From: Escherichia coli
Lineage (GTDB): Bacteria > Pseudomonadota > Gammaproteobacteria > Enterobacterales > Enterobacteriaceae
Assembly: GCF_030384885.1 (NCBI RefSeq)
Contig: NZ_CP128613.1
DNA length: 64,000 bases
Direction: 5' to 3' (one strand)
Below the pieces are notes generated by a model. The model was not told the origin of the DNA. It ran no database searches and saw only the letters and a list, made by a program, of their open reading frames with translations. Both the position numbers and the translations under genes were made by a program. Positions within the stretch are counted from its first letter, which is position 1, and every line of letters begins with the position of its first letter. This document shows, piece after piece, positions 17,965-40,618 of the stretch.

Positions 17965-18135
17965 TTCCTGAACTTCAGAATCATCTTGCTGCTGCTTCGA
18001 TTCAGCAAGGATAAAGGGTATGATAGTGAAAAGGGATAAAAGCATTGTCATCTGCGGCAGCTATGAGTAATGTTGGCCCTAACGAATAGCGGTTGCTTAA
18101 ACGAATCCGACTCTCACATTATCAGGGGTATAAAA

Positions 18136-18465: not shown

Positions 18466-18565
18466 TTCCTGTTTTATTCAATGAGGGTTGCCCGGTAACC
18501 CTCATTGCTCATTGTTTCTTTTCTGTGTATCACCGTCATCACTCCCATCTGATAACCTATTGAAA

Positions 18566-20619: not shown

Positions 20620-20630
20620 AGAGACGTGAC

Positions 20631-21710: not shown

Positions 21711-21774
21711 AAACGAAAAGTCTGATAAAAGCTATACTTATCGGATAGTATTCGCGACTTAGGAAAGGGACATG

Positions 21775-22707
21775 ATGCGTCGTGTAAATATTTTTTGCTC
21801 ATTTGCTCTACTTTTTGCCAGCCATAATAGCCTGGCGGTAACTTATCCATTACCTCCAGAGGGTAGCCGTTTAGTGGGACAGTCGCTTACTGTAACTGTT
21901 CCTGATCACAATACCCACCCGCTGGAGACTTTTGCCGCACAATACGGGCAAGGGTTAAGTAACATGCTGGAAGCGAATCCGGGCGCTGATGTTTTCTTGC
22001 CGAGGTCAGGCTCGCAACTCACCATTCCGCAGCAACTAATTTTGCCCGCCACTGCTCGTAAAGGGATTGTGATTAACGTCGCTGAGATGCGTCTTTATTA
22101 CTACCCTCCAGACAGTAATACTGTGGAAGTCTTTCCTATTGGTATCGGCCAGGCTGGGCGAGAAACCCCGCGTAACTGGGTGACTACCGTTAAACGTAAA
22201 CAAGAAGCACCAACCTGGACGCCAACGCCGAACACCCGGCGCGAATATGCGAAACGAGGGGAGAGTTTGCCCGCATTTGTTCCTGCGGGGCCTGATAATC
22301 CCATGGGGCTGTACGCGATTTATATTGGCAGGCTATATGCCATCCACGGTACCAATGCCAATTTTGGTATTGGGCTCCGGGTAAGTCAGGGCTGTATTCG
22401 TCTGCGCAATGACGATATCAAATATCTGTTTGATAATGTTCCTGTAGGTACTCGTGTACAAATTATTGATCAGCCAGTGAAATACACAACGGAACCGGAT
22501 GGATCAAAGTGGCTGGAAGTTCATGAGCCGCTGTCGCGCAACCGTGCGGAATATGAGTCAGACCGAAAAGTGCCTTTGCCAGTAACGCCATCTTTGCGGG
22601 CGTTTATCAACGGGCAAGAAGTTGATGTGAATCGCGCAAATGCTGCATTGCAGCGCCGATCAGGAATGCCTGTGCAAATTAGTTCTGGTTCAAGACAGAT
22701 GTTTTAA
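21775..22707 (+). CDS. ldtA: L,D-transpeptidase
   Basis: ORF 21772..22707, signal peptide, YkuD domain with catalytic SQGCIRL. Confidence 0.93.
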
Positions 22708-22762
22708 GAGCGTTGTTAATTAGAAAGCAAAAAGCCTTCTCGAAAGCAGGCTTTTTTGAATT

Positions 22763-22838
22763 TGGCTCCTCTGACTGGACTCGAACCAGTGACATACGGA
22801 TTAACAGTCCGCCGTTCTACCGACTGAACTACAGAGGA
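22763..22838 (-). tRNA. asnV: tRNA-Asn(GUU)
   Basis: 76-nt reverse complement of canonical tRNA-Asn sequence ending CCA. Confidence 0.97.
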
Positions 22839-23164
22839 ATCGTGTGAACGGGGCGCATATTAATGGCAGTGCATGGTGATGTCAAAGGGTGAAATGCATT
22901 TTTTTGTTTGTTTGCTGTCAATTTCAACAAAGTGGTGAGCTTTCAATCTTATTGGGTAATGAACCATCGTGGTGCATACCCTCCTTTTATAGGGCAGGGG
23001 AACGCGACAGCTGATTAAAGGAGCCAATGACGAATCTATCATAATCTCTTATTTGACAGTTGCTTAGCTTGTACATCAACGCCAAAATAAAACTGGCAAG
23101 CATCTTGCACTCTGGTTGTAAGTAATGGCGGCACTTGGGCCGATTCTTAAACACCGGAGGCAAC

Positions 23165-24082
23165 ATGAACTTCAGACGCTTGAAATACTTCGTAAAAATT
23201 GTAGATATTGGTAGCCTGACCCAGGCTGCTGAAGTATTGCATATCGCACAACCAGCGCTCAGTCAGCAGGTTGCCACACTGGAAGGTGAGTTAAATCAAC
23301 AACTTTTGATTCGCACAAAACGGGGCGTTACGCCAACTGACGCCGGAAAAATTCTCTATACCCATGCGCGGGCCATTTTACGTCAGTGTGAGCAGGCCCA
23401 ACTGGCGGTGCATAACGTTGGTCAGGCATTATCGGGGCAAGTCTCGATTGGCTTTGCGCCAGGAACCGCTGCGTCATCCATCACCATGCCTTTATTGCAG
23501 GCGGTTCGCGCTGAATTCCCGGAAATTGTTATTTATCTCCATGAAAATAGCGGTGCTGTGCTCAACGAAAAACTGATAAGCCACCAACTCGATATGGCAG
23601 TGATTTATGAGCATTCTCCTGTGGCTGGTGTTTCCAGTCAGGCTTTGCTGAAAGAAGATCTTTTCCTGGTAGGAACGCAAGATTGTCCGGGGCAAAGCGT
23701 TGATGTTAATGCTATAGCACAAATGAACCTCTTTCTCCCCAGCGATTACAGTGCCGTTAGACTTCGTGTTGATGAGGCTTTTTCCCTACGGCGGCTTACA
23801 GCAAAAGTTATTGGGGAAATTGAGTCTATTGCCACGCTTACCGCAGCAATTGCCAGCGGCATGGGCGTTGCAGTCTTACCCGAATCGGCCGCGCGTTCGT
23901 TATGTGGCGCAGTAAACGGATGGATGTCACGCATTACCACACCTTCAATGAGTCTCTCTTTGTCATTAAATTTACCCGCCAGAGCGAACTTATCACCACA
24001 GGCGCAAGCAGTGAAAGAGTTGTTAATGTCAGTGATGAGTTCTCCAGTGATGGAAAAAAGGCAGTGGCAATTGGTGAGCTAA
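23165..24082 (+). CDS. nac: nitrogen assimilation control LysR-family regulator
   Basis: ORF 23135..24082, start MNFRRLKYFVKIVDIGSLTQAA. Confidence 0.93.
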   Translation: MNFRRLKYFVKIVDIGSLTQAAEVLHIAQPALSQQVATLEGELNQQLLIRTKRGVTPTDAGKILYTHARAILRQCEQAQLAVHNVGQALSGQVSIGFAPGTAASSITMPLLQAVRAEFPEIVIYLHENSGAVLNEKLISHQLDMAVIYEHSPVAGVSSQALLKEDLFLVGTQDCPGQSVDVNAIAQMNLFLPSDYSAVRLRVDEAFSLRRLTAKVIGEIESIATLTAAIASGMGVAVLPESAARSLCGAVNGWMSRITTPSMSLSLSLNLPARANLSPQAQAVKELLMSVMSSPVMEKRQWQLVS

Positions 24083-24183
24083 GCGTTATATCGGGATGGA
24101 ATAAGATGCGGGTTTTTATTATTTGTTATGCCGGGCATTAAACTTTAACAATAACGTGATATCTGAACTGCCCGGAGTTTACC

Positions 24184-25134
24184 GTGAATTTCCAACAACT
24201 AAAGATAATCCGCGAGGCTGCACGTCAGGATTACAACCTGACAGAGGTTGCGAATATGCTTTTTACCTCACAGTCAGGCGTCAGCCGTCACATTCGGGAA
24301 CTGGAGGATGAACTTGGCATCGAAATATTTGTTCGACGAGGTAAGCGACTGCTGGGCATGACTGAACCGGGCAAAGCATTACTGGTCATTGCAGAACGTA
24401 TTCTGAATGAAGCCAGTAATGTTCGTCGGCTTGCAGACCTGTTTACCAACGATACGTCTGGCGTTCTCACTATTGCAACGACGCATACTCAGGCACGTTA
24501 TAGCTTGCCTGAGGTCATTAAAGCTTTTCGCGAACTTTTCCCGGAGGTTCGGCTGGAGCTAATCCAGGGGACGCCACAGGAAATTGCAACTTTGTTGCAA
24601 AATGGCGAAGCTGATATTGGTATCGCCAGCGAGCGTTTAAGTAATGACCCGCAGCTCGTCGCCTTCCCGTGGTTTCGTTGGCACCATAGTTTGCTTGTTC
24701 CACTCGATCATCCCTTGACGCAAATTATACCGTTGACGCTGGAATCAATAGCGAAGTGGCCGTTAATCACTTACCGACAGGGGATTACGGGGCGCTCACG
24801 TATTGATGACGCATTTGTCCGCAAAGGTTTGCTGGCAGATATTGTATTAAGTGCGCAGGATTCTGATGTCATTAAAACCTATGTTGCACTCGGGCTGGGG
24901 ATTGGATTAGTTGCCGAACAATCCAGCGGTGAACAAGAGGAAAAGAATTTAATCCGTCTGGATACGCGGCATCTTTTCGATGCTAATACTGTCTGGTTGG
25001 GACTCAAGCGAGGACAACTTCAGCGTAACTATGTCTGGCGCTTTCTGGAACTTTGTAATGCAGGACTGTCAGTTGAGGATATCAAGCGCCAGGTGATGGA
25101 GAACAGTGAAGAGGAAATTGATTATCAGATATAG
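24184..25134 (+). CDS. cbl: CysB-like LysR-family regulator
   Basis: 316 aa ORF MNFQQLKIIREAARQDYNLTEVA, CysB paralog. Confidence 0.93.
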   Translation: MNFQQLKIIREAARQDYNLTEVANMLFTSQSGVSRHIRELEDELGIEIFVRRGKRLLGMTEPGKALLVIAERILNEASNVRRLADLFTNDTSGVLTIATTHTQARYSLPEVIKAFRELFPEVRLELIQGTPQEIATLLQNGEADIGIASERLSNDPQLVAFPWFRWHHSLLVPLDHPLTQIIPLTLESIAKWPLITYRQGITGRSRIDDAFVRKGLLADIVLSAQDSDVIKTYVALGLGIGLVAEQSSGEQEEKNLIRLDTRHLFDANTVWLGLKRGQLQRNYVWRFLELCNAGLSVEDIKRQVMENSEEEIDYQI

Positions 25135-25135
25135 C

Positions 25136-25165
25136 AAAAAGCCCGCTATAAAAGCGGGCTTTTCA
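25136..25165. terminator. hairpin terminator between cbl and asnU
   Basis: aaaaagcccgctataaaagcgggctttt. Confidence 0.6.
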
Positions 25166-25171
25166 GAAATT

Positions 25172-25247
25172 TGGCTCCTCTGACTGGACTCGAACCAGTG
25201 ACATACGGATTAACAGTCCGCCGTTCTACCGACTGAACTACAGAGGA
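25172..25247 (-). tRNA. asnU: tRNA-Asn(GUU)
   Basis: 76-nt exact tRNA-Asn copy. Confidence 0.97.
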
Positions 25248-25407
25248 ATCGCTGTTGAGGCACATCTTAACGGCGAAAAATTTTTTGTCAAACCCGATTT
25301 TTAAATTCCTCAACTGTTTGCCGTTTCTATCAACAGTTTGTTGCATTTGCAGACAATTTGTCGGCAAAAATCTTTGCAGCTTTGCTGATTCTCCCTCATC
25401 ATTTGAA

Positions 25408-26895
25408 ATGTGGTTTCACTTTTTGCAATTAAGGTCGGCTTTGAATATCTCCTCTGCTTTACGCCAGGTTGTTCACGGCACTCGCTGGCACGCCAAACGC
25501 AAGAGTTACAAAGTGTTGTTCTGGCGCGAGATAACCCCGCTTGCTGTTCCTATCTTCATGGAGAACGCCTGTGTCCTGTTGATGGGTGTCCTGAGCACTT
25601 TTCTGGTCAGCTGGCTGGGAAAAGATGCGATGGCCGGCGTGGGATTGGCGGACAGCTTCAATATGGTCATTATGGCTTTTTTTGCAGCTATCGATCTTGG
25701 TACTACTGTCGTTGTGGCATTTAGTCTCGGTAAGCGGGATCGACGACGAGCGAGGGTGGCGACGCGACAGTCATTGGTGATCATGACGTTGTTTGCCGTA
25801 CTGTTGGCAACGCTTATTCATCATTTTGGCGAACAAATTATTGATTTCGTCGCGGGTGATGCCACGACAGAAGTTAAAGCACTGGCGTTGACTTATCTGG
25901 AGCTGACGGTACTCAGTTATCCAGCAGCTGCCATCACTTTGATTGGTAGCGGGGCACTTCGTGGTGCAGGGAATACGAAAATACCGCTACTGATTAACGG
26001 TAGCCTGAATATTCTTAATATTATTATTAGCGGCATATTGATTTACGGCCTTTTCTCCTGGCCGGGACTGGGATTTGTCGGGGCTGGGTTGGGGTTAACC
26101 ATTTCTCGTTATATTGGCGCAGTGGCAATTTTGTGGGTGCTGGCGATTGGTTTTAATCCTGCGCTAAGGATTTCGTTAAAGAGCTATTTTAAACCGCTGA
26201 ATTTTAGCATTATCTGGGAAGTCATGGGGATTGGTATTCCAGCGAGTGTCGAATCAGTGTTATTTACCAGTGGTCGGTTATTAACCCAAATGTTCGTTGC
26301 CGGGATGGGGACCAGTGTTATTGCCGGGAATTTTATCGCGTTTTCAATTGCGGCTCTTATCAACTTACCCGGAAGTGCGCTCGGCTCTGCTTCTACGATC
26401 ATTACAGGCCGAAGGTTGGGGGTAGGGCAGATAGCGCAAGCAGAGATTCAGTTGCGGCATGTGTTCTGGCTGTCCACTCTTGGATTAACGGCCATCGCCT
26501 GGCTAACGGCTCCCTTTGCTGGGGTTATGGCATCGTTTTACACCCAGGATCCACAGGTTAAACATGTCGTTGTGATTCTGATTTGGCTAAATGCTTTATT
26601 TATGCCTATTTGGTCTGCCTCATGGGTGCTACCCGCTGGATTTAAGGGTGCTCGCGATGCCCGTTACGCCATGTGGGTTTCTATGTTGAGCATGTGGGGT
26701 TGCCGGGTTGTAGTCGGTTATGTGCTGGGAATCATGCTTGGCTGGGGTGTGGTTGGTGTCTGGATGGGAATGTTTGCCGACTGGGCTGTGCGGGCCGTGC
26801 TGTTTTACTGGCGCATGGTTACTGGACGTTGGCTGTGGAAATACCCTAGATCTGAGCCGCAAAAGTGTGAAAAAAAGCCAGTTGTGTTGAAATAA
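25408..26895 (+). CDS. yeeO: MATE-family efflux transporter
   Basis: ORF 25255..26895 with internal start MWFHFLQLRS giving 495 aa; 12-TM MATE topology. Confidence 0.9.
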   Translation: MWFHFLQLRSALNISSALRQVVHGTRWHAKRKSYKVLFWREITPLAVPIFMENACVLLMGVLSTFLVSWLGKDAMAGVGLADSFNMVIMAFFAAIDLGTTVVVAFSLGKRDRRRARVATRQSLVIMTLFAVLLATLIHHFGEQIIDFVAGDATTEVKALALTYLELTVLSYPAAAITLIGSGALRGAGNTKIPLLINGSLNILNIIISGILIYGLFSWPGLGFVGAGLGLTISRYIGAVAILWVLAIGFNPALRISLKSYFKPLNFSIIWEVMGIGIPASVESVLFTSGRLLTQMFVAGMGTSVIAGNFIAFSIAALINLPGSALGSASTIITGRRLGVGQIAQAEIQLRHVFWLSTLGLTAIAWLTAPFAGVMASFYTQDPQVKHVVVILIWLNALFMPIWSASWVLPAGFKGARDARYAMWVSMLSMWGCRVVVGYVLGIMLGWGVVGVWMGMFADWAVRAVLFYWRMVTGRWLWKYPRSEPQKCEKKPVVLK

Positions 26896-26995
26896 ACGAC
26901 AAAGTGCAGATTATTTCAGCAAACGATTTCAAATTTAAAAAACAGGCTTTGACATTGTGGATGGGCGTCGCTAATATTCGCCTCGTTCTCACGAT

Positions 26996-27071
26996 TCCTC
27001 TGTAGTTCAGTCGGTAGAACGGCGGACTGTTAATCCGTATGTCACTGGTTCGAGTCCAGTCAGAGGAGCCA
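26996..27071 (+). tRNA. asnW: tRNA-Asn(GUU)
   Basis: 76-nt exact tRNA-Asn copy, plus strand. Confidence 0.97.
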
Positions 27072-27521
27072 AATTTTAGTTTTGAGACATCTCTATGAGT
27101 CTCAAGACAGTTAAAAAATAAAAATTATTTTTACCCGGTTATCTTGTAAAAAAGTGACTGGGTTTTTTGATTTCTGTGTTTTGTGCGCTTAATCGAGTCT
27201 CACGCTTCAGTGAGCAAATTGCCCCCCAACAGACATCACGATTCGCAAGGTCAAAAAATTCGTTCTGTGAAGTACCGTACAAAGGTATAGAGAAAAATGC
27301 CTTATGCGGGATGTTGCTGTCGCGTTTTTATCGGGAAACTAAACGTAATTGCCACTTTGTCTTCTGTAATCAGAAAAAGAAAACCTGGAATTTTAATAAA
27401 TATTATTTCTCTGGGACCGGTATTTTTATAATCAATATGACGAGTTGAATATTATATTTATTATAAGATTTATATGAAATTAAAGAAATCTGCCATAAAG
27501 ACAGATTTCTTTAAAATATAA

Positions 27522-28238
27522 TTAGAGATTTGCGACGTTATGATAAACTTTTTGAACATCGTCGTCATCTTCAAGGGCATCAACAAGCCCTTCAAAGATT
27601 TCTAAATCTTCTGGGGAAAGCTCAACTTCAGATTGAGCAATCATTTCTAATTCTGTTGTTGAGAACTCAGTGATTCCAGCTGCTTTTAGAGCCGCGATTC
27701 CTTTATGAAGGTCAGTAGGTTCAGTATAAATAACAATATTACCTTCTTCTTCAGTTACATCACGAACATCAACTTCAGCTTCAAGTAAAATTTCAAAAAT
27801 ATGGTCCGGGTCTGTACCTTTAAATACAATCACACCCGTATTGTCAAACATATAGCTGACAGAACCTGCCGCTCCGATATTGCCGCCTTTTTTATTGAAA
27901 ATTGTGCGAACGTTAGCAATCGTACGGTTAACATTTGAAGTCAAGGTTTCAGCGATAATCATTGAGCCATTAGGACCAAAGCCTTCATAACGGCCCTGCA
28001 CGAACGTTTCATCTCCGCCGCCTTTGGCTTTATCAATTGCTTTATCAATAACGTGCTTTGGAACTTGTGCCTGCTTCGCACGTTCAATAACGAATTTTAA
28101 AGATGTGTTTAATTCTGGATCGGGTTCACCTTGTTTGGCAGCAGCATAGATTTCTACACCGAATTTTGCATAAATTTTAGACGTTGCACCGTCTTTAGCC
28201 GTTTTTTTAGCAACAATATTGGCCCATTTACGTCCCAC
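27522..28238 (-). CDS. yeeN: YebC/PmpR-family transcriptional regulator
   Basis: 238 aa [20 protein letters not shown] typical of YebC family. Confidence 0.93.
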
Positions 28239-28579
28239 TGGAATGATCTCCTCGAAAATTTATTTACATTACTGGTAAATCGTTAACATGCGTTAATTCG
28301 GCATATTATATCATAACAGGAAAAATCTCGTCTATTAGAAATAAAAATATTCTAAATCCATAATCTTATATTTAATCTCATAAAAACTAATGTTGTTGGC
28401 GGATTTTTTTATAATTGTGTTTTGAAAGCATACTTGCTTTTAATATATGGAAATCATTAAGGCTATAATAAATCTCGTATCCGCCCCAGGAAGCAAACAG
28501 CCTGCTTTATTGCAGGCTATTTGCTGGATGACTTACTAAATCCTTCACATCTATTCCTGATAAAAAGGAACAGAACTTA

Positions 28580-30034
28580 TTACCGGAACGGCGGTTCATT
28601 AAAGGTTCGTAATTTACGTGAATGCAGTCGGTCGCCTTCTGCGCGCAGCAAATCGATCGCACGAATGCCAATTTGCAGGTGTTCGGAAATAGCGCCTTCA
28701 TAAAAACGGTTAGCCTGACCGGGAAGTTTAATCTCACCATGCAACGGTTTATCTGAAACACACAGTAGTGTCCCGTATGGCACGCGGAAACGATATCCTT
28801 GCGCGGCAATGGTTGCACTTTCCATATCAATTGCCACGGCACGGCTTAAGTTAAAACGAAGTGCAGAAGCTGAGTAACGTAATTCCCAGTTCCTGTCATC
28901 TGTGGTTACCACAGTGCCAGTACGTAGCCGCTGTTTAACTTCCTCTCCGGGCCTGCCGCTGACTAACTTGGTAGCGTCATAAAGCGCACGTTGCACTTCA
29001 GCAATGCTCGGAATAGGAATATCGGGCGGCAGTACCGCATCAAGAACGTGGTCATCGCGTAAATAAGCGTGTGCAAGTACATAATCTCCAATGGCCTGGC
29101 TTTCACGTAAGCCACCACAGTGACCAATCATCAACCAGACATCCGGGCGCAGCACCGCCAGATGATCGCAGATGGTTTTAGCATTTGACGGTCCCACGCC
29201 AATATTCACCAGAGTAATACCCTGACCATCGGCGGTAATTAAATGCCATGCAGGCATCTGATGTTTTTTCCATGCAAGGTCGGAAATGGCTTCTTCTGGC
29301 GCTTCGGTTTCGGCGGTGATCCAGTTCCCGCCAGCACAAGAAAGGGCAATGTAGGGACTATCAGGGTCGAGGATCTGGCTGCATCCCCAACGAACGAATT
29401 CATCCACATAACGTGTGTAGTTGGTAAACAAGACGAACGGCTGAAAATGTTCAACTGGCGTACCGGTATAATGGCGCAACCGTGCGAGGGAAAAATCAAC
29501 CCGGCGCGCATCAAAATGAGATAGCGGGGAGAATTCCGTTGGATGATAAATGCCGTCTGCAGTTTCATCGCCAATTTGCGCCAGTTCTGTTGTCGGGAAG
29601 TAGCGAGTTAATCCAGCGCTCATTGAGCGATCAAGTGTCAATTCAGAGCCATCGATGACATAAGGATAAGGGATTTCATGTTGCGAGGGTTGCACAGAAA
29701 TATGCGCACCATAATCCTGATAAAGCAACGTTAGTTGCTCATTCAGGTACGAACGAAAGAGAGTAGGGCGAGTAATCGTGGTGGTGTAGCTGCCTGCGTG
29801 AGTAAAACGACCAAATGCGCGCGTTTTGGGGGGATTTGTTGTGCTACCGTCCCAGGTTACGGTCAGTTATGGATAGACAAAAAGACCTTCTTTACGGGCA
29901 TTTTCATCAGGTAATTCGCCACTTTTAATATAGTTGCCAATGGCATTGCGTAAAGCGACTACAGATTGCTCATACAGCGCGTCGAGTTTTTCCAGTGCCT
30001 GAGCTGGGGTCAGACCGGAGCCCTTATTATTCAT
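28580..30034 (-). pseudogene. amn: AMP nucleosidase interrupted by an in-frame TAA at codon 56
   Basis: ORFs 29867..30190 (ends ...DENARKEGLFVYP*) and 28580..29728 are in the same frame; the interval between translates without further stops as Amn-like sequence. Confidence 0.85.
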
Positions 30035-30135
30035 GTGTGTCTCCTGTTCCATACAATTACCGCACTTCCGATAGTATGTCACAGGAATGTGAAACAAAAG
30101 TGTAAGGCGAAGATCGGATGATCTTCGCCTGACTA

Positions 30136-31452
30136 TCAAGCGTGTTGATTGTCTTTCATCAACAAAGCGGTTATTGCAGAAATGAGGCATCCAGCCAGCA
30201 AATAAATGGCGACGCTATGCCAGTTTCCAGCAAAATAAGTGATGAGTGCAGCAGCAATAAAAGGTGTAAATCCACCGCCGACCACACTGGCAACCTGATA
30301 TCCGACTCCAGCTCCACTATAGCGATAACTGGCACCAAACATTTCGGTAAACATCGGTTGTTGCACGCACACCACCATGTCATGCGCAATGTTTGCCAGC
30401 ATTATGGAGAAGAAAACTATCCAGAAAATAGATTGTGCTTCAAGCGCTATAAAGAAAGGAAATGCGCTCAACGTTCCGATTAACGCACCTGTGATATAAA
30501 CTCTGCGGCGACCAAAACGATCGGCAAGCCAGGCAAAACAGGGAATTGTCAGGCAGCTTAATCCACCTACCAGCAAACCAATATTGAGGAAAAGTTCGCG
30601 CGGTAACCCCATATTCTGGGTTGAATAATTAAGTGCGAAGGCGGTAACGATGTACATCGTCAGCAACTCGCACAGTCGTAGCGCAATAATCTTCAGAAAA
30701 GCACCGGGATGTCGTAACAGTGCTTCGATAACCGGGATGCGTTTTTGCGCTGCCGCTTGATTATGTTGCTGTTGTTCAAATTCCGCGGACTCCTCCATGC
30801 CATTACGCACCCACAATGCCCCCAGTACCAGTACGATGCTAAACAGGAAAGGAATGCGCCAGCCCCAGCTTAAAAACTGTTCGTCAGTCGTCATCATACT
30901 GATCAATGAAACCAGTCCGGTTGAAAGCAGTAAACCTACACCGTAACCAACTTGTACACCGCTACTGTAAAAGGCTTTTTTATTCTTAGGTGCGCTTTCA
31001 ACGGAAAGCAACGCTGCGCCTCCCCATTCGCCGCCGACGGCAAATCCCTGAATGGCACGCAGTGTCACCAGTAAAATGGGGGCCCACCAACCTATGGTCG
31101 AGAAGGAAGGAAGAATGCCAATCAAGGCTGTCGCGATGCCCATCATCCAGACGGTCAGCATTAACATGCGCTTACGTCCCAGTCGGTCGCCAAAGTGACC
31201 GAAAATGACACCGCCAAGTGGACGGAAAAGGAAGCCGACACCAAAGGTGGCAAATGCGGCGAGCGTTCCCATTGCCGGGCTGACTTGCGGGAAAAACTCG
31301 CGATTAAACACCAGTGCGGCGGTAATGCCATAGAGTAAAAAGTCATACCAGTCGACGACAGCTCCGGCGAAACTGCCAAACGCAGCTCGTCGGGCGCGAC
31401 TTAACGAAAGCGTCCCATCATCGGGACGAGTGGAGATGAGCGTGGTGTCCAT
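30136..31452 (-). CDS. shiA: MFS shikimate/dehydroshikimate transporter
   Basis: 438 aa ORF, MFS sugar-transporter signature (GHFGDRLGRKRMLM). Confidence 0.92.
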   Translation of the reverse strand: MDTTLISTRPDDGTLSLSRARRAAFGSFAGAVVDWYDFLLYGITAALVFNREFFPQVSPAMGTLAAFATFGVGFLFRPLGGVIFGHFGDRLGRKRMLMLTVWMMGIATALIGILPSFSTIGWWAPILLVTLRAIQGFAVGGEWGGAALLSVESAPKNKKAFYSSGVQVGYGVGLLLSTGLVSLISMMTTDEQFLSWGWRIPFLFSIVLVLGALWVRNGMEESAEFEQQQHNQAAAQKRIPVIEALLRHPGAFLKIIALRLCELLTMYIVTAFALNYSTQNMGLPRELFLNIGLLVGGLSCLTIPCFAWLADRFGRRRVYITGALIGTLSAFPFFIALEAQSIFWIVFFSIMLANIAHDMVVCVQQPMFTEMFGASYRYSGAGVGYQVASVVGGGFTPFIAAALITYFAGNWHSVAIYLLAGCLISAITALLMKDNQHA

Positions 31453-31757
31453 AATGATCCTGTTTGTACTGTCTTTTTATAATTAGTATGGAAAAGGTAA
31501 CTCACATTGCCGTCGATCTATAAACGAACCTTATGAGACTACCGCGCCAGAGCGCTTCTGCAAATGATTTTATGGCTGATTAACGGCAACATGAAAAATT
31601 CGATGGAAGATGAAATCGCAGGAGTTGCATAAGGATTGAGCAGAGCACCTACAGTTTTGAGATATGAAACATAAAAGTCCGCATATGCACAAAATTGCAC
31701 CCTGATGATTCTGATAGACTGCATTGCATTTTAACCAGTAGGGAGGCGAGGTTAGGT

Positions 31758-32828
31758 ATGTTTTTAGCATCATTGTTGAGACGTATTGCATTTAGTTACT
31801 ACGATTATAAAGCTAATAATTTCAATATTGGAAAAACAGACTTTGTTGTTATCCACATTCCCGATCAAATTGGCGATGCTATGGCCATCTTTCCAGTTAT
31901 TCGGGCGCTTGAATTGCATAAAATTAAGCATCTTTTAATTGTTACTTCGACTATTAATTTAGAAGTCTTTAATGCGCTCAAACTTGAACAGACTAAATTA
32001 ACATTAGTCACAATGACTATGCAGGATCACGCAACATTAAAAGAAATAAAAGATTTAGCGAAGAACATAACACAGCGATACGGTACGCCGGATCTTTGTA
32101 TAGAGGCGATGCGTAAAAAGAACCTGAAAACGATGTTATTTATCAGTCAGTTGAAAGCAAAAACGAATTTTCAGGTTGTCGGTTTAACCATGAAGTGCTA
32201 TTCCCCTTTGTGTAAGAACGCGTCCCGGATGGATCAGAATCTCAGGGCTCCCGTACCCATGACATGGGCGTTTATGATGCGTGAAGCGGGTTTTCCTGCA
32301 GTCAGGCCAATATATGAATTACCATTAAGCGAGCAGGTAATAAATGAAGTACGTGAGGAATTGTGCACTTTAGGATCTTACATTGCGCTTAATTTAGATG
32401 GCAGCGTGCAGGAACGCACATTTTCGTTATCAGTAGCTGAGAAACTCATCGCCAAAATTCAAAGTGATAATGATATGCCAATAGTCATTGTTCATGGACC
32501 AAAAGGGGAAGATAAAGCCCGGAAATTAGCGGGTTGTTATAATAATGTCTACCGGCTATCCTTATCACCCTCGATTAAACGTTCAGCAGCAATCATAAAA
32601 GATGCTTATATCGCAATAACCCCTGATACCTCAATATTACATATGGCAAGTGCCTATAATACCCCCGTCGTTGCAATTTATGCTGATTACAAAACGCGGT
32701 GGCCTGCGATGGCAGATATCTCGGAGTCAGTGGTCGTTGGGCAAAAAATTGATCATATAAGTTTGGATGAATTCGGAAAGGCGCTAAAAAGTGCTTTGGA
32801 GAGAGTATGTGCCAGTACTTACGTATAG
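31758..32828 (+). CDS. yeeL: glycosyltransferase family 9 (heptosyltransferase-like)
   Basis: ORF 31695..32828, probable start MFLASLLRR; GT9-like C-terminal motifs; apparently intact here. Confidence 0.7.
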   Translation: MFLASLLRRIAFSYYDYKANNFNIGKTDFVVIHIPDQIGDAMAIFPVIRALELHKIKHLLIVTSTINLEVFNALKLEQTKLTLVTMTMQDHATLKEIKDLAKNITQRYGTPDLCIEAMRKKNLKTMLFISQLKAKTNFQVVGLTMKCYSPLCKNASRMDQNLRAPVPMTWAFMMREAGFPAVRPIYELPLSEQVINEVREELCTLGSYIALNLDGSVQERTFSLSVAEKLIAKIQSDNDMPIVIVHGPKGEDKARKLAGCYNNVYRLSLSPSIKRSAAIIKDAYIAITPDTSILHMASAYNTPVVAIYADYKTRWPAMADISESVVVGQKIDHISLDEFGKALKSALERVCASTYV

Positions 32829-33207
32829 AAGGTAATGCCGATCTATGCTGAACAGGGGACATTAATACCCTGAGGTTGGTCAATCACCACAAAAAAAACC
32901 TTTGAATCAAAGCAATACTCACCGAATAATAAGGCAACCTGAACTTAAATCCCCGTTAACTGGCATACATTATTATGACTTGCACTGATGTAATTAGCTA
33001 AATATTATCGTGATTTGACTAAATAGCAAAAATGATAGCTATCAAAAATAGCTCATATACTTTGTTTCCCGCTGCCGTAGAATAGATGGTCCTTCCATGT
33101 TTCAAGCATTTATTCAAAAAAAAGGGGGCTCGACTGTCTTACGATAAACAGAGAGGGATTGTAAAGTCGAGTGCCCCTAATGGAGCACTCTATAAAAAAA
33201 TCAACAA

Positions 33208-36200
33208 TCAAATGTTTTTATAACATGTCACATGAGAAAATCCAAGTTTTGCCATTACGCTTTGCTCACCTGTTGCCAGGGAAATTTCGTATTGTTCATT
33301 GGAGTTTGCGGGACTAGATGACCAATACATATCTGAATAAAAATCGGCTTCATTCATGTAATGCCCCATATCTCCCCATTCACTGTACAATGTCCCTATA
33401 CCTCGGGAACGACCCTGGCTTAAAAGGCTTGCACGGGGAAGCATGTAGCCATTGCTACTGCAAAAATTTTCAGCAAGGCTGTATATCATGAAAGAATCGC
33501 CGGAGTTTACCCACCAACTCTTCACCCGGATTTCGTATATATAGCCAGGGCCTCCTGATTTTGGCGTCGCTGTAATCGTTACCCAACTGCTTCCGACATT
33601 TTTAAATGTCACTTTACCGGTAGCGTCAACATCGACCCAGGAGGCAGAGCTTGAAAACTCATAATCAGCCGCCGTTTTGCCCGGGGAAAAGTTGTCATTA
33701 TTCAACTGATAATAAGCCCCAGTGAACCCCTGCGAAGGGAATGTAGTTGTCGGTAGGTTAGCACCATTGACTAACACGGTACCGCTCATTATTTTGTCTT
33801 CTGCGCGAGTGAATTGTATTGTGGTACTCAGACCCGCTTGATGAACACCATTCAATACAGGGATCAGCGTTGCGATACCCTCTCCGCCTCCTATAACAGT
33901 GGCTTTGTAATCACCGTTGATATTTTGACTGTAATCAATTGCGCTAATTTTCACATAGGGCACGTTAGTACCTGATTGCACAAATTCCATCCCTTCAGAA
34001 ACTTTGATCGGATTGCCTGATATATCGTGCAAAACAAGATGTAGCTCAGCACTATCGGTATAGTCCCCTTTTAGTGATGACCGATTGTTCTTAAGGACGG
34101 ACTGCGAGGCGTCTGCCGGGCCTGCCACCAGCGTTATATTAGCTGTTTGCGTTGCACCTGTGCTCGTTCCTGCACTAACAGTTACGCTCCCAGTTCGCGC
34201 ACTTTTCAAGGTGGTTGTCGCAAATCCGTGTTGATCGGTCACCGCTGTTAATGACCCTAATGTGGCAGAGCCACTTTTTAATGCGAAGTTCACATTGACG
34301 CCTTCGACTTGGTTACCACTGCCGTCCTCAACAGTAGCCTTCAGCGTGCTGATATCGCTGTCGTTGGCAGTGATAGTTGACGGATCAGCGCTCAGGCTGA
34401 CCACATGGGCTGTGCTTTGGTTGCCAGTAACTTTCACGATTGTCTGCGCCTGAATAATTACGCCACTAGTGATAGATGCTGTAACCGTATACGTACCGAC
34501 TTTATTGCTGGTCAGAACGACTTGTGCCTCCCCGGAAGGATTGGTTTTCATTGTTTCGCTACTTAACGTTGCATCTTCTGGCGTTACGCTAAAGGTAACG
34601 AGTTCATTGTTCACTGGGGCCCCATTTGGATTGGTTAGCCTTACTGTCAGAGTTGAACCTAATGGGTCATTGATGCCGATAAGTGGACTTGATGCTGTGA
34701 GTGTCAGTTTTAAATCGATTACCACCAGGTCCTTCTCATAAGAGGAGCCATTCGCCAGGGATGCTTGCACAGTATACGAACCGTATCTATTGGGCGTCAT
34801 GGTGACCTCGGCTATACCCTGTGTATTCGTAGAGACCGTATCCTGACTAATGACCATGTTAAAAAATGACGGCTCTGCACTGAATGTCACAAGCTGTTCA
34901 GAAACTGGATTGCCAAACTGGTCGTCGACGTGCGCTTTAACCGCCAGGGGGGTTGCGACCATAACCTGACCTTCAGGCATTTCCAGACTGGTGATCGTCG
35001 CAGAATCAGCATCTGCTTTGACAGTCAACGTTTGCATGATGGTATCTGTAGGTGCATTTGCCAGATTAGCCACAACAATTTTCGTCCCTGCAATGGTGCT
35101 TGTTACAAGAATTTCTGCCTTACCCTGAGCATCTGTTTCAGCGGTGGTGTTACTCAGCGTGGCGGATAAGCCGCGGAAATTGACCTTGATGCCTTCTAAT
35201 GGATTGTCATAAGCGTCAGTGACACTTGCCGTCAGGGTCGCACCCTCGGTTGTGCTGGCGATTAATGAGCTTGATGATGCGGTAAAATCAGCCAGTTTAG
35301 CGGTACTCGCATCGGCAAGCAAAGTCACCGGCCTCGTATCACTGACACCATAACTGTCCACGCTGACCGTCACGGGATAGGTGCCGGACTTCGTACCGCT
35401 TAGTGTAACTTCCGCCTTGCCGTTGATGTCAGTAATGGCGGAACCGCCTTCTCCAAGAGTGAAGCTTGCACTCACATCTGCCGGTAGTGTGAATGTCACC
35501 GGCTCATTGGCTAACGGGTTGCCGTGTCCATCAGTCACCGTTGCCTGAAGTTGGGTCATCCCAACGTTATTGGCGATAAAGTTGTTCTCGGTAACGTTCA
35601 GATTAACCTGCGCTGTGAGCGTATCCGCAATAAAGTTCACCACCAACTGCTCACTCTTACCGCCAGCCATCGCTGCTGTCACGGTATGTGCTCCTGCTTT
35701 TGTACCTTTCAGTGTGACTTTCGCTTTGCCTTCAGCATCAGTAACCGCTTTACCGCCATCGCTCAGCGTGAAGTTTGCCCTCACATCTTCCGGGAGAGTA
35801 AATGTTACTTCAGTGTTGGCTATCGCATTGCCCTCTGTATCTGCGACTGTTGCTGTTAATGTCGTGAGATCGTTATTGTCGGCAATCACCGGATCTTTTG
35901 AGGCTCCCAGCGTGATTTCAGCATTCGCCACGTTCGGCACATAGGTCACTGTTTGTTGTATCGAATCGCCATTGTCGAGCGTTGCCGTCACTTGATAAAC
36001 CCCGGCTTTTGTAGCGGTAAAGCTTGCGTAAAAATGGCCGTAGGAGTTGGTAGTATATATAGCGTTATTACTGGGGGTCACACCTTCACTTGGCGAAACG
36101 CTGATGGTCACCTTATGTTGGGGTACACCGTTTCCGTAATTATCGTTTACCACAACATACAGATCGGTCGTGTTGCCTGCGGAGACTGTATCAGTAAGTG

Positions 36201-37251
36201 CTTGTAACAAGGTGATATGTGCCGTAGACGCATCAGCGTTGACATTAATTGATGTGCTAAGCGTGGAGCTACCATTTTCCAGACTGGCCTCAACGGTATC
36301 CGGCCTCCCTCCTGATTCTGCCGAGGAACGGGTATTGGTATAAGTGACGGTTGCCTTACCCTGTTCGTTCGTTACGGCTTGGCCGCCATTCGTCATTTCA
36401 GCAGAGTTTGTACTGCTGGTGAAACTCACAGTTACACCTTTCACCGGAAAGCTATTATTATCAACGACTGTCGCGGTGATGACGCTGCCGGTGCTATTCT
36501 GCGGGGTACCAGCGATTATGCTGTTTGGGACAGACGTCAACCCAATAATTTTTGCCGCAGCTGTGTCGCCAATAAAGTGCACAGTTTTGTGGTCGCTGGC
36601 ACCATTATTAGCAAGTGATACAGTGACCGTCTGCTCACCAAAGGCAACGCCTACGAGAGTGGCCTGCGCGATGCCAGACTCATTGGTATTACTCTCCCCT
36701 GGGGTGAGGGTGAGGCCTGAAGAGGCTGAGCTGAATGTTACCGGAAGATTGTTCACCTCATTGTCGAACTGGTCTTTAACCGTTGCAGTTAACGTTGCAC
36801 TATCGACGCCATTACCCGTGATCTCATCTTTTGACATCTGCAGGGCAACCTGAGCCGAGGTTTTGTCTGCCACAAATGTTACCGGCTGCGATTCACTGGC
36901 ATTGTTATTAATCAGCGTCGCGGTAACTGTATGCGTGCCCGCTTTTTTACCTTTGAGGGTGACATGCGCTTCCCCATTGGCTTGGGTGACGGTAATACCG
37001 TTATTTTCAAGGGTAAAGTTTGCCGCGACGTCTTGTGGCATGGTGAAATTCACCGCTATCCCCGCCACCGGATGATTCGACGGATCTTTCACTGTAGCTG
37101 TCAGCTGCACACTGTCGCTGTTATTCGTCACCACCTGGTGAGCAGGAATGTTCAGCGTGAGCCGCGCGTTGCTGGCATCGGGAGCAATATTGACTGTCTT
37201 CGAATCGCTATTGCCGTTAGGCAGAGTGGCTTCGGCTGTATGAACACCCAA
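33208..37251 (-). pseudogene. yeeJ: inverse-autotransporter adhesin, 5'-truncated (Big-domain array and C-terminal lectin-like domain retained)
   Basis: 1347 aa ORF of repeated bacterial Ig-like modules (VTLKGxKAGTHTVTA...) ending ...CYKNI; no signal peptide, LysM or beta-barrel region upstream; ORF abuts hypE fragment. Confidence 0.8.
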
Positions 37252-37286
37252 TACCGCGCCTTTTAGGGTAACTTCAGCAAACCGCC

Positions 37287-37535
37287 ATGGCAGCTAATAT
37301 GCTGGGTGTTGACGTCATTAATCTCGCTAATGAAGGTTGTTTGTGCCTGTTTGTTGAACCTGAGTATGCTCAGAAGGTACTACATTTGCTGCAGGAGCAT
37401 CCTGTCGGCAAGCACGCGACAATTATCGGCGAGATCACCGCTGTCTCGGGTACTGAAGTCTATATGATTGAAGCTGATGGAACACACACAGAAGTCGAGG
37501 AATTATATGGCGCAGAATTACCCAGACTCTGTTGA
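37287..37535 (+). pseudogene. HypE-like C-terminal fragment (ends with conserved PRxC)
   Basis: 82 aa ORF ...HPVGKHATIIGEI...ELPRLC matching HypE C-terminus including terminal Cys; N-terminal about 250 aa absent. Confidence 0.7.
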
Positions 37536-39885
37536 GCTTCACGAGACGCCGGAAACCCGGCGTTACCGCATCTGTGGGGTCGTTCAGGGCGTTGGATTTC
37601 GTCCCTTTGTTCACCGACTGGCCCGCACCTATGGTGCCACCGGCTGGGTGTTAAACGATTCAGAAGGCGTGTTGCTTGAGCTGCAGGCATCCGGCACGGT
37701 TATTGCCAGAATCATGGACAAACTGGTGACCGAGGCACCACCACTGGCAAAAATCATCAGTACGCAGGAAGTTAGCCCAACGGATACCAGAGCGCACTAT
37801 GAAACGTTCAGCATCCGTAAAAGCCGCGATCATACCAGCATGGACACGATTATCCCGCCAGATACCAACGTCTGCAGCGATTGCCTGCGCGAGATAAGCG
37901 ATCCTGATAATCATCGTTATCGTTACGCTTTCACCAATTGCACCAATTGTGGGCCGCGCTATTCCATTATTCTTGGTATGCCTTACGATCGTGCCCAGAG
38001 CACTATGCGTAAATTCCCTTTATGTCCAACCTGTGAGCGTGAATACAACGATATTGAGGATCGACGCTATCATGCCCAGCCCAATGCCTGCCCAGTTTGC
38101 GGCCCACAGTTGCAACTTACCGATCGACAGGGCACATCCGTTCACACAGATGATATTGTCAAATTTGCCATTACGAAACTAAAAGAAGGCGGAATTCTTG
38201 CAATAAAGAGCCTTGGTGGCTTTCATCTCGTGGCCGATGCTTGCAATGAGAATGCTGTCAATGAACTTCGGCAACGCAAGCGAAGAGACGCCAAACCTTT
38301 TGCAGTGATGGTCGCGGATGTGGAAAGCGCGTCGCGTATTGCTTTCATCCCCCCCTGTAATCACAAATTGCTGGAAAGCCCGCAGCGTCCCATTGTCTTG
38401 TTGTATAAGCGCAACGTCCTGCTGGCGAGTACCGTTGCGCCACATAATCCGAACATCGGTGTAATGCTGCCTTCAACGCCGCTTCAGCATTTATTGCTGG
38501 AAGACCCGTCTCTGCCGATCCTGATTATGACCAGCGGTAATATTTCCGGTCATCCGATCGTCTTTGACAACGACATGGCAATTAAGCAACTCGGGAAAAT
38601 CGCGGATTACTTCATTCTGAATAATCGCGATATTCATACGCGTGTTGACGATTCGGTGGTCCGCACGGTGTTTCGCAACGACGCCATTACCTCGCAGCTA
38701 TCGTTTTTGCGCCGCTCCCGCGGTTACGCGCCATACCCTATTCATCTACCTTACGCAGTGGATTCCGTTATCGCGCTCGGGGCGGAGCTAAAAAACACGA
38801 TCAGCATCGGCAAAGGAAAACAGGTTTTTCTGAGCCAGCATATTGGCGATCTTAAGAATAACGTGACTTTTAAATCACATATCGAATGTATTGATCATCT
38901 TCAAAACCTGCTGAACGTGAAGGCAAATGTCGTGGCCTGCGATTTGCATCCCTCTTTCCGCTCTACCCGGCATGCGCTGGAGAATTTAGAGCATCAGGTT
39001 GTTCAGGTTCAACACCATCACGCGCATATGGCATCCTGCATGGCGGAAAATGGCCTGTCAGGTACTACTCTAGGCGTAATTTTTGACGGTACAGGATATG
39101 GCACCGACGGCACCATTTGGGGCGGTGAGTTTCTCGTTGGTGATTTCGAAAAATTCGAGCGTGCAGGATGCTTGCGTTCAATGACCCTGCCCGGAGGCGA
39201 TCGGGCAGTTAAAGAGCCGCTGCGCGTCGGCATCTCCTTACTGGTGGAAACCTTCGGCGAAGATATCAGTACGCTCGCAGTACCAGGCTTGCAGGCGCTC
39301 CAGCCTCAGCAGCGCGATATATTCAGTAAAATGGCGACCAGAAAAATCAACACCACCACGACCAGCAGCATGGGCAGACTATTTGACGGCATCGCCGCGC
39401 TGATGGGCGTTTGCACTCAGGTGGAGTACGAAGCCCAGGCGGCCATTGAACTGGAAGCGCTGCTGCAGTGTAAACTTCATATGACGGCTCCGTTCAGCTA
39501 CATCATTGCCGATGTCGAGAATAAGCTCGAGGTGGATTATCGCCCGATGATAAGGGAACTGGTGCAATGCTTCAGCCAGCCCGGTTTTGATATGGCCGAA
39601 CTAAGTCGGCGCTTTCACTCTACCATCGTCGACATGATTTGCGAGGTCTGTAAACGTCTGGTGGCACGCTCAGGCACGCAACAAATTGTCCTGAGCGGCG
39701 GCGTGTTCTGCAATGAATTCATCCTCGTTAATTCTCTTAACAGTCTGGAGTCTTGTGGATTCCGGCCTTACAGCCATCAGTTAGTTCCGACTAACGATGG
39801 TGGTATTTCATTGGGGCAAGTGGTTATTGCTACCGCATACACTCGCGCAACGCGCAATAAAAATCTGGAGAGAGAAAATGCATAG
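37507..39885 (+). CDS. HypF-like carbamoyltransferase (acylphosphatase, two Zn-fingers, YrdC, Kae1 domains)
   Basis: ORF 37468..39885; RBS gagga before ATG 37507; acylphosphatase motif VQGVGFRPFV, two CxxC...CxxC pairs, YrdC and Kae1-like regions. Confidence 0.85.
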   Translation: MAQNYPDSVELHETPETRRYRICGVVQGVGFRPFVHRLARTYGATGWVLNDSEGVLLELQASGTVIARIMDKLVTEAPPLAKIISTQEVSPTDTRAHYETFSIRKSRDHTSMDTIIPPDTNVCSDCLREISDPDNHRYRYAFTNCTNCGPRYSIILGMPYDRAQSTMRKFPLCPTCEREYNDIEDRRYHAQPNACPVCGPQLQLTDRQGTSVHTDDIVKFAITKLKEGGILAIKSLGGFHLVADACNENAVNELRQRKRRDAKPFAVMVADVESASRIAFIPPCNHKLLESPQRPIVLLYKRNVLLASTVAPHNPNIGVMLPSTPLQHLLLEDPSLPILIMTSGNISGHPIVFDNDMAIKQLGKIADYFILNNRDIHTRVDDSVVRTVFRNDAITSQLSFLRRSRGYAPYPIHLPYAVDSVIALGAELKNTISIGKGKQVFLSQHIGDLKNNVTFKSHIECIDHLQNLLNVKANVVACDLHPSFRSTRHALENLEHQVVQVQHHHAHMASCMAENGLSGTTLGVIFDGTGYGTDGTIWGGEFLVGDFEKFERAGCLRSMTLPGGDRAVKEPLRVGISLLVETFGEDISTLAVPGLQALQPQQRDIFSKMATRKINTTTTSSMGRLFDGIAALMGVCTQVEYEAQAAIELEALLQCKLHMTAPFSYIIADVENKLEVDYRPMIRELVQCFSQPGFDMAELSRRFHSTIVDMICEVCKRLVARSGTQQIVLSGGVFCNEFILVNSLNSLESCGFRPYSHQLVPTNDGGISLGQVVIATAYTRATRNKNLERENA

Positions 39886-40618
39886 TTCTGCGAACCGTAT
39901 TGCCGCTGTTTTATTCGATATGGATGGTGTCCTTATTGATTCCAATGCGGTGATTGAGCGCGGCTGGGCTGAAGGCGCACAGATGTTTGGCAAGACGCTA
40001 ACGGAAGAGGATATCGTCAGGCATATTCACGGACAGCCCGGCCCGCATACCATTCGCGCCCTGTTCAGCGACCTTTCCCTGGAAGATCAAAAGAAGGTCC
40101 AGTCACATATCATCCACGTTGAAAATACCGCTGATTACGACCCGATCCCTGGAGTTAGCGAACTTATCCAGGCGTTGCATAAGGCTGGCATCAGTGTGGG
40201 GATTGTCACTAGCGGCTGGCGGTCGAAAATCGATCGTATTATGGAGATGCTGCAAATCACGCCCTGTATTTCAGTGATTGTCGAACGTGATGATGTCGTG
40301 CGCGGCAAGCCTTATCCCGATCCTTATCTGCTTGCCGCAGAGCGGTTTCATCTTGCACCGTCCAGAACACTGGTCTTTGAGGATTCAAGAAGCGGCGTAA
40401 CATCTGCTGTTACAGCAGGCGCAATTTGTGTTGGCATCGGTACAGACAGTCTGAAAGAGTGCGGTGCCGTGCTTGCAATTACAGATTTTCGTAATGTGAA
40501 AATCACCTCACAGACAGGCGAAAAAGTAGTGATTGCCTTTACTCCAGAGCACCAGATGGAGATGGAAACTCAGAGCTCTCGTAAGAAAACATCCTGTACC
40601 ACAAGAGAAGAGTGCTAA
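39878..40618 (+). CDS. HAD-superfamily hydrolase (beta-phosphoglucomutase-like subfamily IA)
   Basis: ORF 39797..40618, start MHSSANRIAAVLFDMDGVLIDS (DxDG motif), start overlaps hypF-like stop. Confidence 0.8.
   Translation: MHSSANRIAAVLFDMDGVLIDSNAVIERGWAEGAQMFGKTLTEEDIVRHIHGQPGPHTIRALFSDLSLEDQKKVQSHIIHVENTADYDPIPGVSELIQALHKAGISVGIVTSGWRSKIDRIMEMLQITPCISVIVERDDVVRGKPYPDPYLLAAERFHLAPSRTLVFEDSRSGVTSAVTAGAICVGIGTDSLKECGAVLAITDFRNVKITSQTGEKVVIAFTPEHQMEMETQSSRKKTSCTTREEC

Follow-up and report, generated by a model that had tools for sequence, protein, structure and literature searches.

A 7,159-bp deletion leaves abutting remnants of a yeeJ-type adhesin gene and a hypE paralogue in Escherichia

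Microhomology-associated illegitimate deletions, and the pseudogenes that go with them, are familiar from enterobacterial genomes, where they arise by RecA-independent slippage or alternative end-joining. Two protein families are relevant to the deletion described here. The first is that of the inverse autotransporters (type Ve secretion, intimin/invasin/YeeJ family), which require an N-terminal signal peptide and a β-barrel to bring the passenger to the cell surface (PMC5595812, PMC6714894). The architecture of one member, YeeJ, and the roles of its LysM domain and β-barrel have been described (PMC5595812), and its last ~130 residues have been described as C-type lectin-like (PMC5595812, PMC6714894). 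Besides YeeJ, the members with a periplasmic LysM domain include intimin, IatC and IatD. Published variation in yeeJ is confined to presence or absence of the gene and to two length variants, and the truncation reported below is absent from those accounts (PMC5595812, PMC6714894). The second is the HypE/HypF pair of [NiFe]-hydrogenase maturation, in which HypF uses carbamoyl phosphate to carbamoylate the C-terminal cysteine of HypE and HypE-thiocyanate then forms from HypE-S-carbamoyl (PMC4506123, PMC12130793). A full-length HypE has AIRS N- and C-domains, which bind ATP and carry out the dehydration of the S-carbamoyl group.

We analysed a 64-kb stretch of E. coli DNA (the window) that holds parts of genes from both families. 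Flanked by GT9/yeeL-shiA on one side and by asnT on the other, the yeeJ-type gene occupies the locus of the published yeeJ (Martinez-Gil et al. 2017, PMC5595812; Goh et al. 2019, PMC6714894). In its intact allele, signal peptide, LysM-like segment, IAT_beta, Big_1/Invasin_D3 array and C-terminal domain follow one another as in YeeJ, and at 7,989 bp the intact gene fits the long UMN026-type yeeJ variant (7,077 + 906 bp) by locus, architecture and length. In contrast, the copy in the window is without residues 1-1306 and without its own upstream region. We found no paper that describes this allele, and the event itself is an ordinary deletion with pseudogenisation.

The deletion and its junction

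We used two intact references, the corresponding loci of strains 2013C-4282 (L004) and MFDS1022581 (L001). 2013C-4282 carries stx1 and belongs to Escherichia cryptic clade I (PMC10100065). In both references the gene order is shiA, a GT9 gene, the 7,989-bp Ig-like/yeeJ gene (minus strand), a LysR regulator gene (minus strand), a cysteine-hydrolase gene, hypE, hypF, HAD, MFS, integrase remnants, tRNA-Asn and mtfA. The features of the window that bear on the deletion are as follows.

31758-32828, plus strand: glycosyltransferase family 9 (GT9) gene at the yeeL position (L004 7319-8389), convergent with yeeJ and part of the conserved left context
33208-37280, minus strand: 5'-truncated yeeJ-type inverse-autotransporter gene, identical to L004 8769-12841
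37279-37280, no strand: deletion junction, an AA common to both parental flanks, with the breakpoint ambiguous within AA and 7,159 bp missing
37281-37535, plus strand: hypE remnant, codons 260-343 and stop, 100% identical to L004 20003-20257
37507-39885, plus strand: intact hypF paralogue of 792 aa, 100% identical to the 2013C-4282 gene (TIGR00143, 788.5 bits against a cut-off of 466.1)
39878-40618, plus strand: intact HAD-family hydrolase gene, mapped from the L004 annotation (22600-23340), with HAD-IA family matches
40618-41811, plus strand: intact MFS transporter gene, mapped from the L004 annotation (23340-24533)
42263-42565, no strand: two integrase remnants (Phage_int_SAM_2 and Arm-DNA-binding fragments by Pfam) at the island end, pseudogenes in L004 (24985-25287)
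42727-42802, minus strand: tRNA-Asn (asnT position) adjoining the island, from the L004 annotation (25449-25524) in the colinear flank

A base-by-base comparison with 2013C-4282 gave two colinear flanks. Window positions 24440-37280 correspond to L004 1-12841 (12,841 bp) with a single mismatch at 29868, and positions 37279-43883 correspond to L004 20001-26605 (6,605 bp) with zero mismatches. Between them L004 12842-20000, a segment of 7,159 bp, is missing from the window. Window positions 1-24000 are also 100% identical to 2013C-4282, and comparison with MFDS1022581 gave the same colinear arrangement. The sole difference in the left flank, at window position 29868, introduces a private stop codon into amn (S56*). 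Beyond tRNA-Ser at 43883, on the right-hand side, the window carries an integrative island that is absent from 2013C-4282.

An earlier note on this DNA had proposed that yeeJ lost its 5' half and hypE its 5' part in a deletion, and alignment with 2013C-4282 and MFDS1022581 supports this. The losses it named are correct but incomplete, as the LysR and cysteine-hydrolase genes and both intergenic control regions were also removed. From yeeJ (2,662 codons) the deletion took codons 1-1305 and the first base of codon 1306, a part that encodes the signal-peptide-like N-terminus, the LysM-like segment, the IAT_beta barrel and ~7 Ig-like domains. The 768-bp yeeJ upstream region, the whole LysR regulator gene, the 226-bp divergent LysR/hydrolase intergenic region, the whole 199-codon cysteine (isochorismatase-family) hydrolase gene and codons 1-259 of the 343 of hypE went with it. 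The missing protein parts were not found elsewhere in the 64-kb window by tblastn, in which the only matches were to paralogous Ig repeats and to nac and cbl, two unrelated genes of the LysR family.

The island is rare: 16 of the 5,426 complete genomes carry it, each in intact form, and in these the missing 7,159 bp completes both truncated ORFs exactly. By the formal symmetry of indels, the window could instead be ancestral and the 7,159 bp an insertion in strains like 2013C-4282. This symmetry is all that speaks for an insertion, which we regard as vanishingly improbable. With the extra DNA, two opposite-strand ORFs become complete and in frame, one for a yeeJ product of 2,662 aa with signal peptide and β-barrel and one for a hypE product of 343 aa (415 bits, TIGR02124); the segment has neither terminal repeats nor mobility genes, and intact yeeJ is found without the island in many E. 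coli. Since the extra DNA completes two opposite-strand ORFs, the polarity of the change is unambiguous. The 7,159-bp deletion is real, and its boundaries, size and polarity are established.

At the junction, the match to the left parent extends as far as 37280 and the match to the right parent begins at 37279, which leaves an overlap of 2 bp (AA). The yeeJ-side parental sequence reads ...GGGTAACTTCAGCAA up to the breakpoint and CACCACTG... beyond it, and RMDEC465, which carries another long-variant yeeJ allele, has the same sequence on this side. The hypE-side parental sequence reads ...CATACAGCCGGAA before the breakpoint and ACCGCCATGG... after it. The window reads ...GGGTAACTTCAGCAAACCGCCATGG... 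across the junction. The parental flanks explain every base, and we found no filler DNA, IS end, target duplication, att-like repeat or mobile-element sequence at the junction. The check for microhomology suggested earlier thus returned these 2 bp, and a local alignment of ±100 bp around the endpoints gave no longer homology (score 14 against 10.6 ± 1.7 for shuffled sequences, with a maximum of 15).

The yeeJ and hypE remnants therefore lie head to head at 37280/37281 with zero spacer. The earlier note had placed a few tens of bp between them, which is wrong, as yeeJ DNA runs through 37280 and hypE DNA starts at 37279. It had also described the junction as fusing yeeJ to hypE. The remnants do abut, but they are divergent and a fusion protein is therefore impossible.

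We consider it highly probable that these strains carry a single 7,159-bp deletion, made by RecA-independent illegitimate recombination at the AA dinucleotide in a recent sub-lineage of Escherichia cryptic clade I. In such an event, replication slippage or end-joining at the 2-bp AA would have acted once in a recent clonal sub-lineage, with one endpoint in a Big-domain repeat of yeeJ (codon 1306 of 2,662) and the other in codon 259 of the hypE paralogue, and everything between the endpoints would have been lost in one step. The locus has the colinear flanks, the seamless junction and the short shared sequence of an illegitimate deletion, and its two endpoints are without long repeats, IS ends or att sites. 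From the sequence we infer the mechanistic class, which would be RecA-independent slippage or end-joining. The deletion is also likely to be very recent, as its flanks hardly differ from those of the intact relative and the remnant ORFs are undecayed. A 2-bp match is about the level expected by chance at any junction; dependence on microhomology would be unprovable from it, and a multi-step history that left no trace may be possible.

A real deletion could also be the work of a mobile element or a site-specific system (for example an IS that was then lost, or aberrant action of the island integrase), or have taken two or more successive steps. The integrase remnants at the island end adjoin tRNA-Asn, IS2, IS3, IS5 and ISAs1 are among the IS frequent nearby in relatives, and the cassette has decayed independently in other lineages. 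However, the parental flanks account for all junction bases with no IS end, target duplication or att-like repeat, the integrase genes are themselves fragments, and IS-mediated adjacent deletions normally keep the IS at the junction. A mobile-element or stepwise origin is thus improbable, and a single illegitimate deletion remains the preferred reading.

Carriers of the junction

If the assembly had joined the wrong contigs or collapsed repeats within the Big-domain array, the strain could in reality be intact. The yeeJ gene is indeed internally repetitive: window positions 36731-37284 also align at 82% to the next repeat in L001, and neighbouring yeeJ repeat units are 77% identical by tblastn. 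Moreover, no complete RefSeq E. coli genome (0/5,426) covers both halves of a 2-kb junction query in one place. In those genomes the query is split, with bases 1-984 matching genes for an 'Ig-like domain-containing protein' and bases 980-2001 matching 'hypE/hypF'.

Carriers were found by exact-protein look-up of both remnant ORFs among draft and Logan assemblies. The 82-aa hypE product was found on 22 contigs, a 78-aa version on 4 and the 1,347-aa yeeJ product on 9. The exact 36-nt junction string was present in 11 fetched loci from 10 distinct datasets, namely the NCBI assemblies GCA_904842275.1, GCA_051323845.1 and GCA_025828115.1, the ENA assembly ERZ13616183 and six Logan assemblies. The carrier sequencing runs include SRR19266938, SRR18593988, SRR14995614, SRR35948513, SRR17241682 and SRR16894925. 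The string had no match among the GTDB one-genome-per-species representatives, as expected for a within-species variant, and none among the JGI metagenome contigs. The 78-aa 'AIR synthase-related protein' (P0002) was entertained as a second independent truncation and rejected; it comes from the same junction with another start-codon call.

An assembly artefact, a possibility raised in the earlier note, is excluded by these carriers because the identical junction is present in 10 independent datasets from different assembly pipelines. In addition, the right endpoint lies in unique hypE sequence outside any repeat, and repeat collapse is unable to remove the LysR, hydrolase and hypE 5' sequences. 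We therefore rate a misassembly as extremely unlikely and continue with a real deletion.

Over 5-23 kb the carrier loci show 0-4 substitutions relative to the window, a closeness that indicates one tight clone. The exact junction string can serve as a clonal marker for this sub-lineage of cryptic clade I, a clade to which attention has been drawn as an emerging source of STEC/ETEC-type pathogens (PMC10100065). One metagenome contig (L008) has the junction within a 6-kb identical core between divergent flanks; such a mosaic would need either later recombination or chimeric assembly as its explanation.

The yeeJ and hypE remnants

The yeeJ remnant begins with the final 2 nt of codon 1306 and continues through codons 1307-2662 to the stop. 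On the minus strand its frame runs from the stop at 33208-33210 and, as noted before, stays open to 37293, where an in-frame TAG at 37294-37296 closes it. The final 13 nt of this open frame (37281-37293) are hypE-derived DNA read on the opposite strand. Gene callers predict a 1,347-aa product with a TTG start at 37251. Its NCBI entry is CAD6032200.1, 'putative invasin', and some of the proteins that cluster with it at 90% identity bear the NCBI name 'inverse autotransporter adhesin-like protein YeeJ'.

We found that the only Pfam domains in the remnant are Big_1, Invasin_D3 and Invasin_D4. Its last 1,200 residues contain at least nine Big_1 matches together with Invasin_D3 matches and one Invasin_D4 match, and the last ~130 residues have no Pfam match. 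The intact allele, in contrast, begins with a signal-peptide-like N-terminus (MATKKRSGEE...LVFPMAAAAQG) and has IAT_beta (PF11924) at residues 144-419 with E = 2.8e-113. It also has a LysM-like segment at about residues 70-118, judged by eye and from the literature, as Pfam LysM was absent among the matches listed. Measured against type Ve proteins, the remnant retains the tandem Big_1/Invasin_D3 passenger with its C-terminal capping domain and has none of the signal peptide, the LysM and the 12-stranded IAT_beta β-barrel.

The earlier statement that the signal peptide, LysM and β-barrel are missing is thus borne out, both by Pfam analysis of the remnant and by tblastn of the window, in which no copy of the N-terminal 430 residues of intact YeeJ was found anywhere in the 64 kb. 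A search for an upstream continuation of yeeJ with a signal peptide likewise returned nothing in the window. The export parts lie in the deleted segment, which supports the earlier view that the adhesin cannot be exported in its present form. Because type Ve secretion needs the lost signal peptide and β-barrel, and because the upstream region of the gene is gone, the remnant is probably a dead, promoterless and non-exportable gene, a pseudogene rather than a functional member of the family. Adhesin typing based on the 3' part of yeeJ would wrongly call these strains YeeJ-positive.

On the hypE side, the first ATG of the remnant is at 37287, where the earlier note had the hypE fragment start on the opposite strand, and it opens an ORF of 82 codons. 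This ORF keeps the frame of the intact gene, corresponds to HypE residues 262-343 and overlaps the start of the next plus-strand ORF of ~800 codons. The only domain match of its product is a partial AIRS_C. It thus falls short of the full-length AIRS N- and C-domains of a HypE, and it ends in ...GAELPRLC and so retains the C-terminal cysteine in the PR(I/L)C motif. The product has been deposited as 'AIR synthase-related protein' (CAD6032225.1 and others). For annotation, the 1,347-aa 'putative invasin' and this 82-aa protein are best read as remnants of one deletion, not as genes.

For hypF, the HypE partner, the operon start and the LysR regulator are all lost. Because HypE is reduced to 84 codons, and because the apparent operon has lost its first gene as well as its regulator, the island pathway should be abolished, which would leave hypF-HAD-MFS as an orphaned operon tail. 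hypE was independently inactivated by Q251* in another sample (L006).

Transcription of what is left could still occur. A consensus scan, whose counts are near chance and lend weak support, gave no sigma-70-like site on either strand between 36800 and 38000. The same kind of scan gave candidate divergent promoters in the deleted LysR/hydrolase intergenic region, again with a count near chance, and, with counts near chance, no terminator-like site between the GT9 gene and the yeeJ 3' end. Read-through could therefore still transcribe the 1,347-codon ORF and the intact hypF-HAD-MFS genes.

The remnants might be alive, with the 1,347-codon ORF translated from an internal start into a new cytoplasmic or otherwise exported Ig-repeat protein and hypF-HAD-MFS expressed by read-through, as new functional units. 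In every carrier where they were called, the two remnant ORFs are intact and without change, hypF, HAD and MFS are 100% intact, and the scan placed no terminator-like site between the region and the GT9 gene upstream of it. However, the scan placed no promoter-like site near the junction, the yeeJ ORF is without signal peptide or translocator, and the missing decay is explained by youth, with one substitution over 19.4 kb of flank. Moreover, PGAP-annotated carrier assemblies (L007 and L046) have no protein call for the yeeJ remnant. We thus judge functional remnants to be very unlikely, and treat both yeeJ and hypE as pseudogenes below.

The hydrolase-HypE-HypF module and comparison with known systems

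The earlier note had referred to a hypE-hypF island. An intact island does exist in other genomes, but it is an accessory cassette associated with asnT and is unrelated to the hydrogenase hyp operon. The hydrolase-HypE-HypF triad recurs with conserved order and orientation, also in other phyla, and we found it in Raoultella, Citrobacter, Escherichia sp. E1V33, Buttiauxella, Lonsdalea, Hafnia, Photobacterium, Sorangium and ~18 actinomycetes; the fetched Raoultella locus ends within hypE, and in Lonsdalea hypE and hypF are fragmented. At high-GC loci, antisense artefacts of naive longest-ORF calling (clusters c3, c6, c11, c12, c15 and c17) were discarded and replaced by GC3-filtered ORFs. The neighbours of the triad at these loci include genes for NRPS, type II thioesterase, ATP-grasp ligase, DABA-type aminotransferase, threonine-transaldolase-like proteins and peptide exporters. 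Among the locus neighbours in Hafnia, Streptomyces, Sorangium and Amycolatopsis there was no HypC or HypD. The cassette occurs without hypE/hypF in one Gilliamella and one Kluyvera genome.

Our search of the literature on the function of a cassette of HypE/HypF with an isochorismatase-type hydrolase found only a passing remark in a genome-mining study of 2020, which recorded orphan hypE/hypF beside an ATP-grasp gene in Streptomyces (PMC7794033). We suggest tentatively, and with somewhat less than even confidence, that the deletion knocks out both an adhesin and a horizontally spread module that perhaps uses carbamoyl/thiocyanate chemistry on a small molecule or peptide, not on a hydrogenase, and that the deletion lineage and 2013C-4282 form a natural pair of knock-out and wild type in which the product of the module could be sought. 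As the intact strain is virtually isogenic, the two would offer a natural loss-of-function comparison for the conserved hydrolase-HypE-HypF module.

Compared with the [NiFe]-hydrogenase proteins (PMC4506123, PMC12130793), both island proteins pass the NCBIfam equivalog cut-offs, intact HypE (343 aa) with 415 bits against 251.6 for TIGR02124 and HypF with 788 against 466. The C-terminal cysteine of island HypE lies in PRLC where the canonical motif is PRIC (PMC12130793). Unlike the hydrogenase hyp system, the island has no hypA, hypB, hypC, hypD or hydrogenase genes nearby, and its HypE and HypF are instead partnered with a cysteine hydrolase, an HAD hydrolase, an MFS transporter and a LysR regulator.

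The event itself resembles other microhomology-associated illegitimate deletions. As in these, the deletion in the window is of kilobase scale, cuts genes on both sides and leaves a seamless junction with 2 shared bp and no filler or mobile element. It is set apart from typical cases only by the availability of a complete genome from a virtually isogenic intact relative, 2013C-4282.

The amn gene, tRNA genes and the island past tRNA-Ser

We compared the window with 2013C-4282, an intact and virtually isogenic relative from Escherichia cryptic clade I. Over the 12.8-kb left flank we found a sole difference, a G to T change at 29868, which converts codon 56 of amn from TCA (Ser) to TAA (stop). 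Since codon 56 is now a stop, amn is split in the window's ORF listing. Two other deletion carriers, L012 and L013, have the wild-type G at this position, so the amn stop is private to the genome from which the window comes. Features of this region and of the tRNA-Asn genes are as follows.

28580-30034, minus strand: amn (AMP nucleosidase)
31758-32828: yeeL position, occupied by a GT9 glycosyltransferase gene with an intact ORF of 356 codons
about 22756-22862: further tRNA-Asn copy
25172-25247: tRNA-Asn
26996-27071: tRNA-Asn
42727-42802: tRNA-Asn

In K-12, yeeL is a pseudogene. The scattered tRNA-Asn copies are near-identical and occupy the asnU, asnW, asnT and asnV positions. The hypE-hypF island adjoins one of them, and two overlapping integrase fragments lie at 42263-42565.

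Directly past tRNA-Ser (serU position), the window has in 43884-64000 an integrative island that 2013C-4282 does not carry. Its best matches elsewhere reach only ~94% identity, and there the annotations include a MobQ relaxase, a SIR2-family protein, a PilV shufflon adhesin and DUF6387. At the same position the L012 contig carries DUF6387, AlpA, an H-NS-like protein and a NACHT protein. This may be a mobilisable island of the defence type.

A mosaic carrier and other damaged cassettes

Another carrier, L008 (ENA ERZ13616183 NODE_98), aligns to the window over 34091-43534. The two are identical over ~36400-42400, the junction included, while the distal yeeJ remnant (34091-36400) diverges by ~10% and the sequence past 42400 by 1-3%. 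L008 is a mosaic, to be explained either by transfer of the deletion allele through homologous recombination or by a chimeric metagenome assembly.

Damage to the cassette was also found at other loci. The hypE paralogue of L006 (Logan SRR30235506, 5218-6249) carries the nonsense mutation Q251* (CAG to TAG), and by this other route yields the same 82-aa downstream ORF as the window. In L006 yeeJ is not adjacent to the island; the genes preceding LysR encode EIIC-GAT, ribulose-phosphate epimerase, SDR and SIS proteins, and the MFS gene is followed by a longer integrase gene. The inactivation of hypE in L006 is an event independent of the window's deletion. Two further variants lack hypE and nearly all of hypF.

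L020 (Gilliamella sp. WF3-4), 7000-9700: cassette variant
L044 (Kluyvera intermedia), 6880-9000: cassette variant

Both retain LysR, HAD and MFS, and the hydrolase is either present or reduced to a fragment. They point to additional independent deletions within this cassette.

The hydrolase-HypE-HypF module

We used the following loci for comparison of the island.

2013C-4282 locus, 17525-24533: intact hypE-hypF island
window, 37281-41811: island portion left
L016-L044: related loci

We found a conserved triad, made up of a cysteine hydrolase (isochorismatase family), HypE and HypF, whose order and strand are kept in Enterobacterales, Photobacterium, Sorangium and about 18 actinomycetes. Around the triad, related loci carry genes for NRPS, type II thioesterase, ATP-grasp ligase, DABA-type aminotransferase, threonine-transaldolase-like and peptide ABC-exporter proteins. 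Neither HypC nor HypD was present among the triad neighbours scanned. The hypE-hypF island is no operon of hydrogenase genes; its triad appears to form an uncharacterised module for biosynthesis, which would employ HypEF carbamoyl/cyano chemistry. Our literature searches on such a HypE/HypF-hydrolase module turned up only a passing remark, which places orphan hypE/hypF beside an ATP-grasp gene in Streptomyces (PMC7794033).
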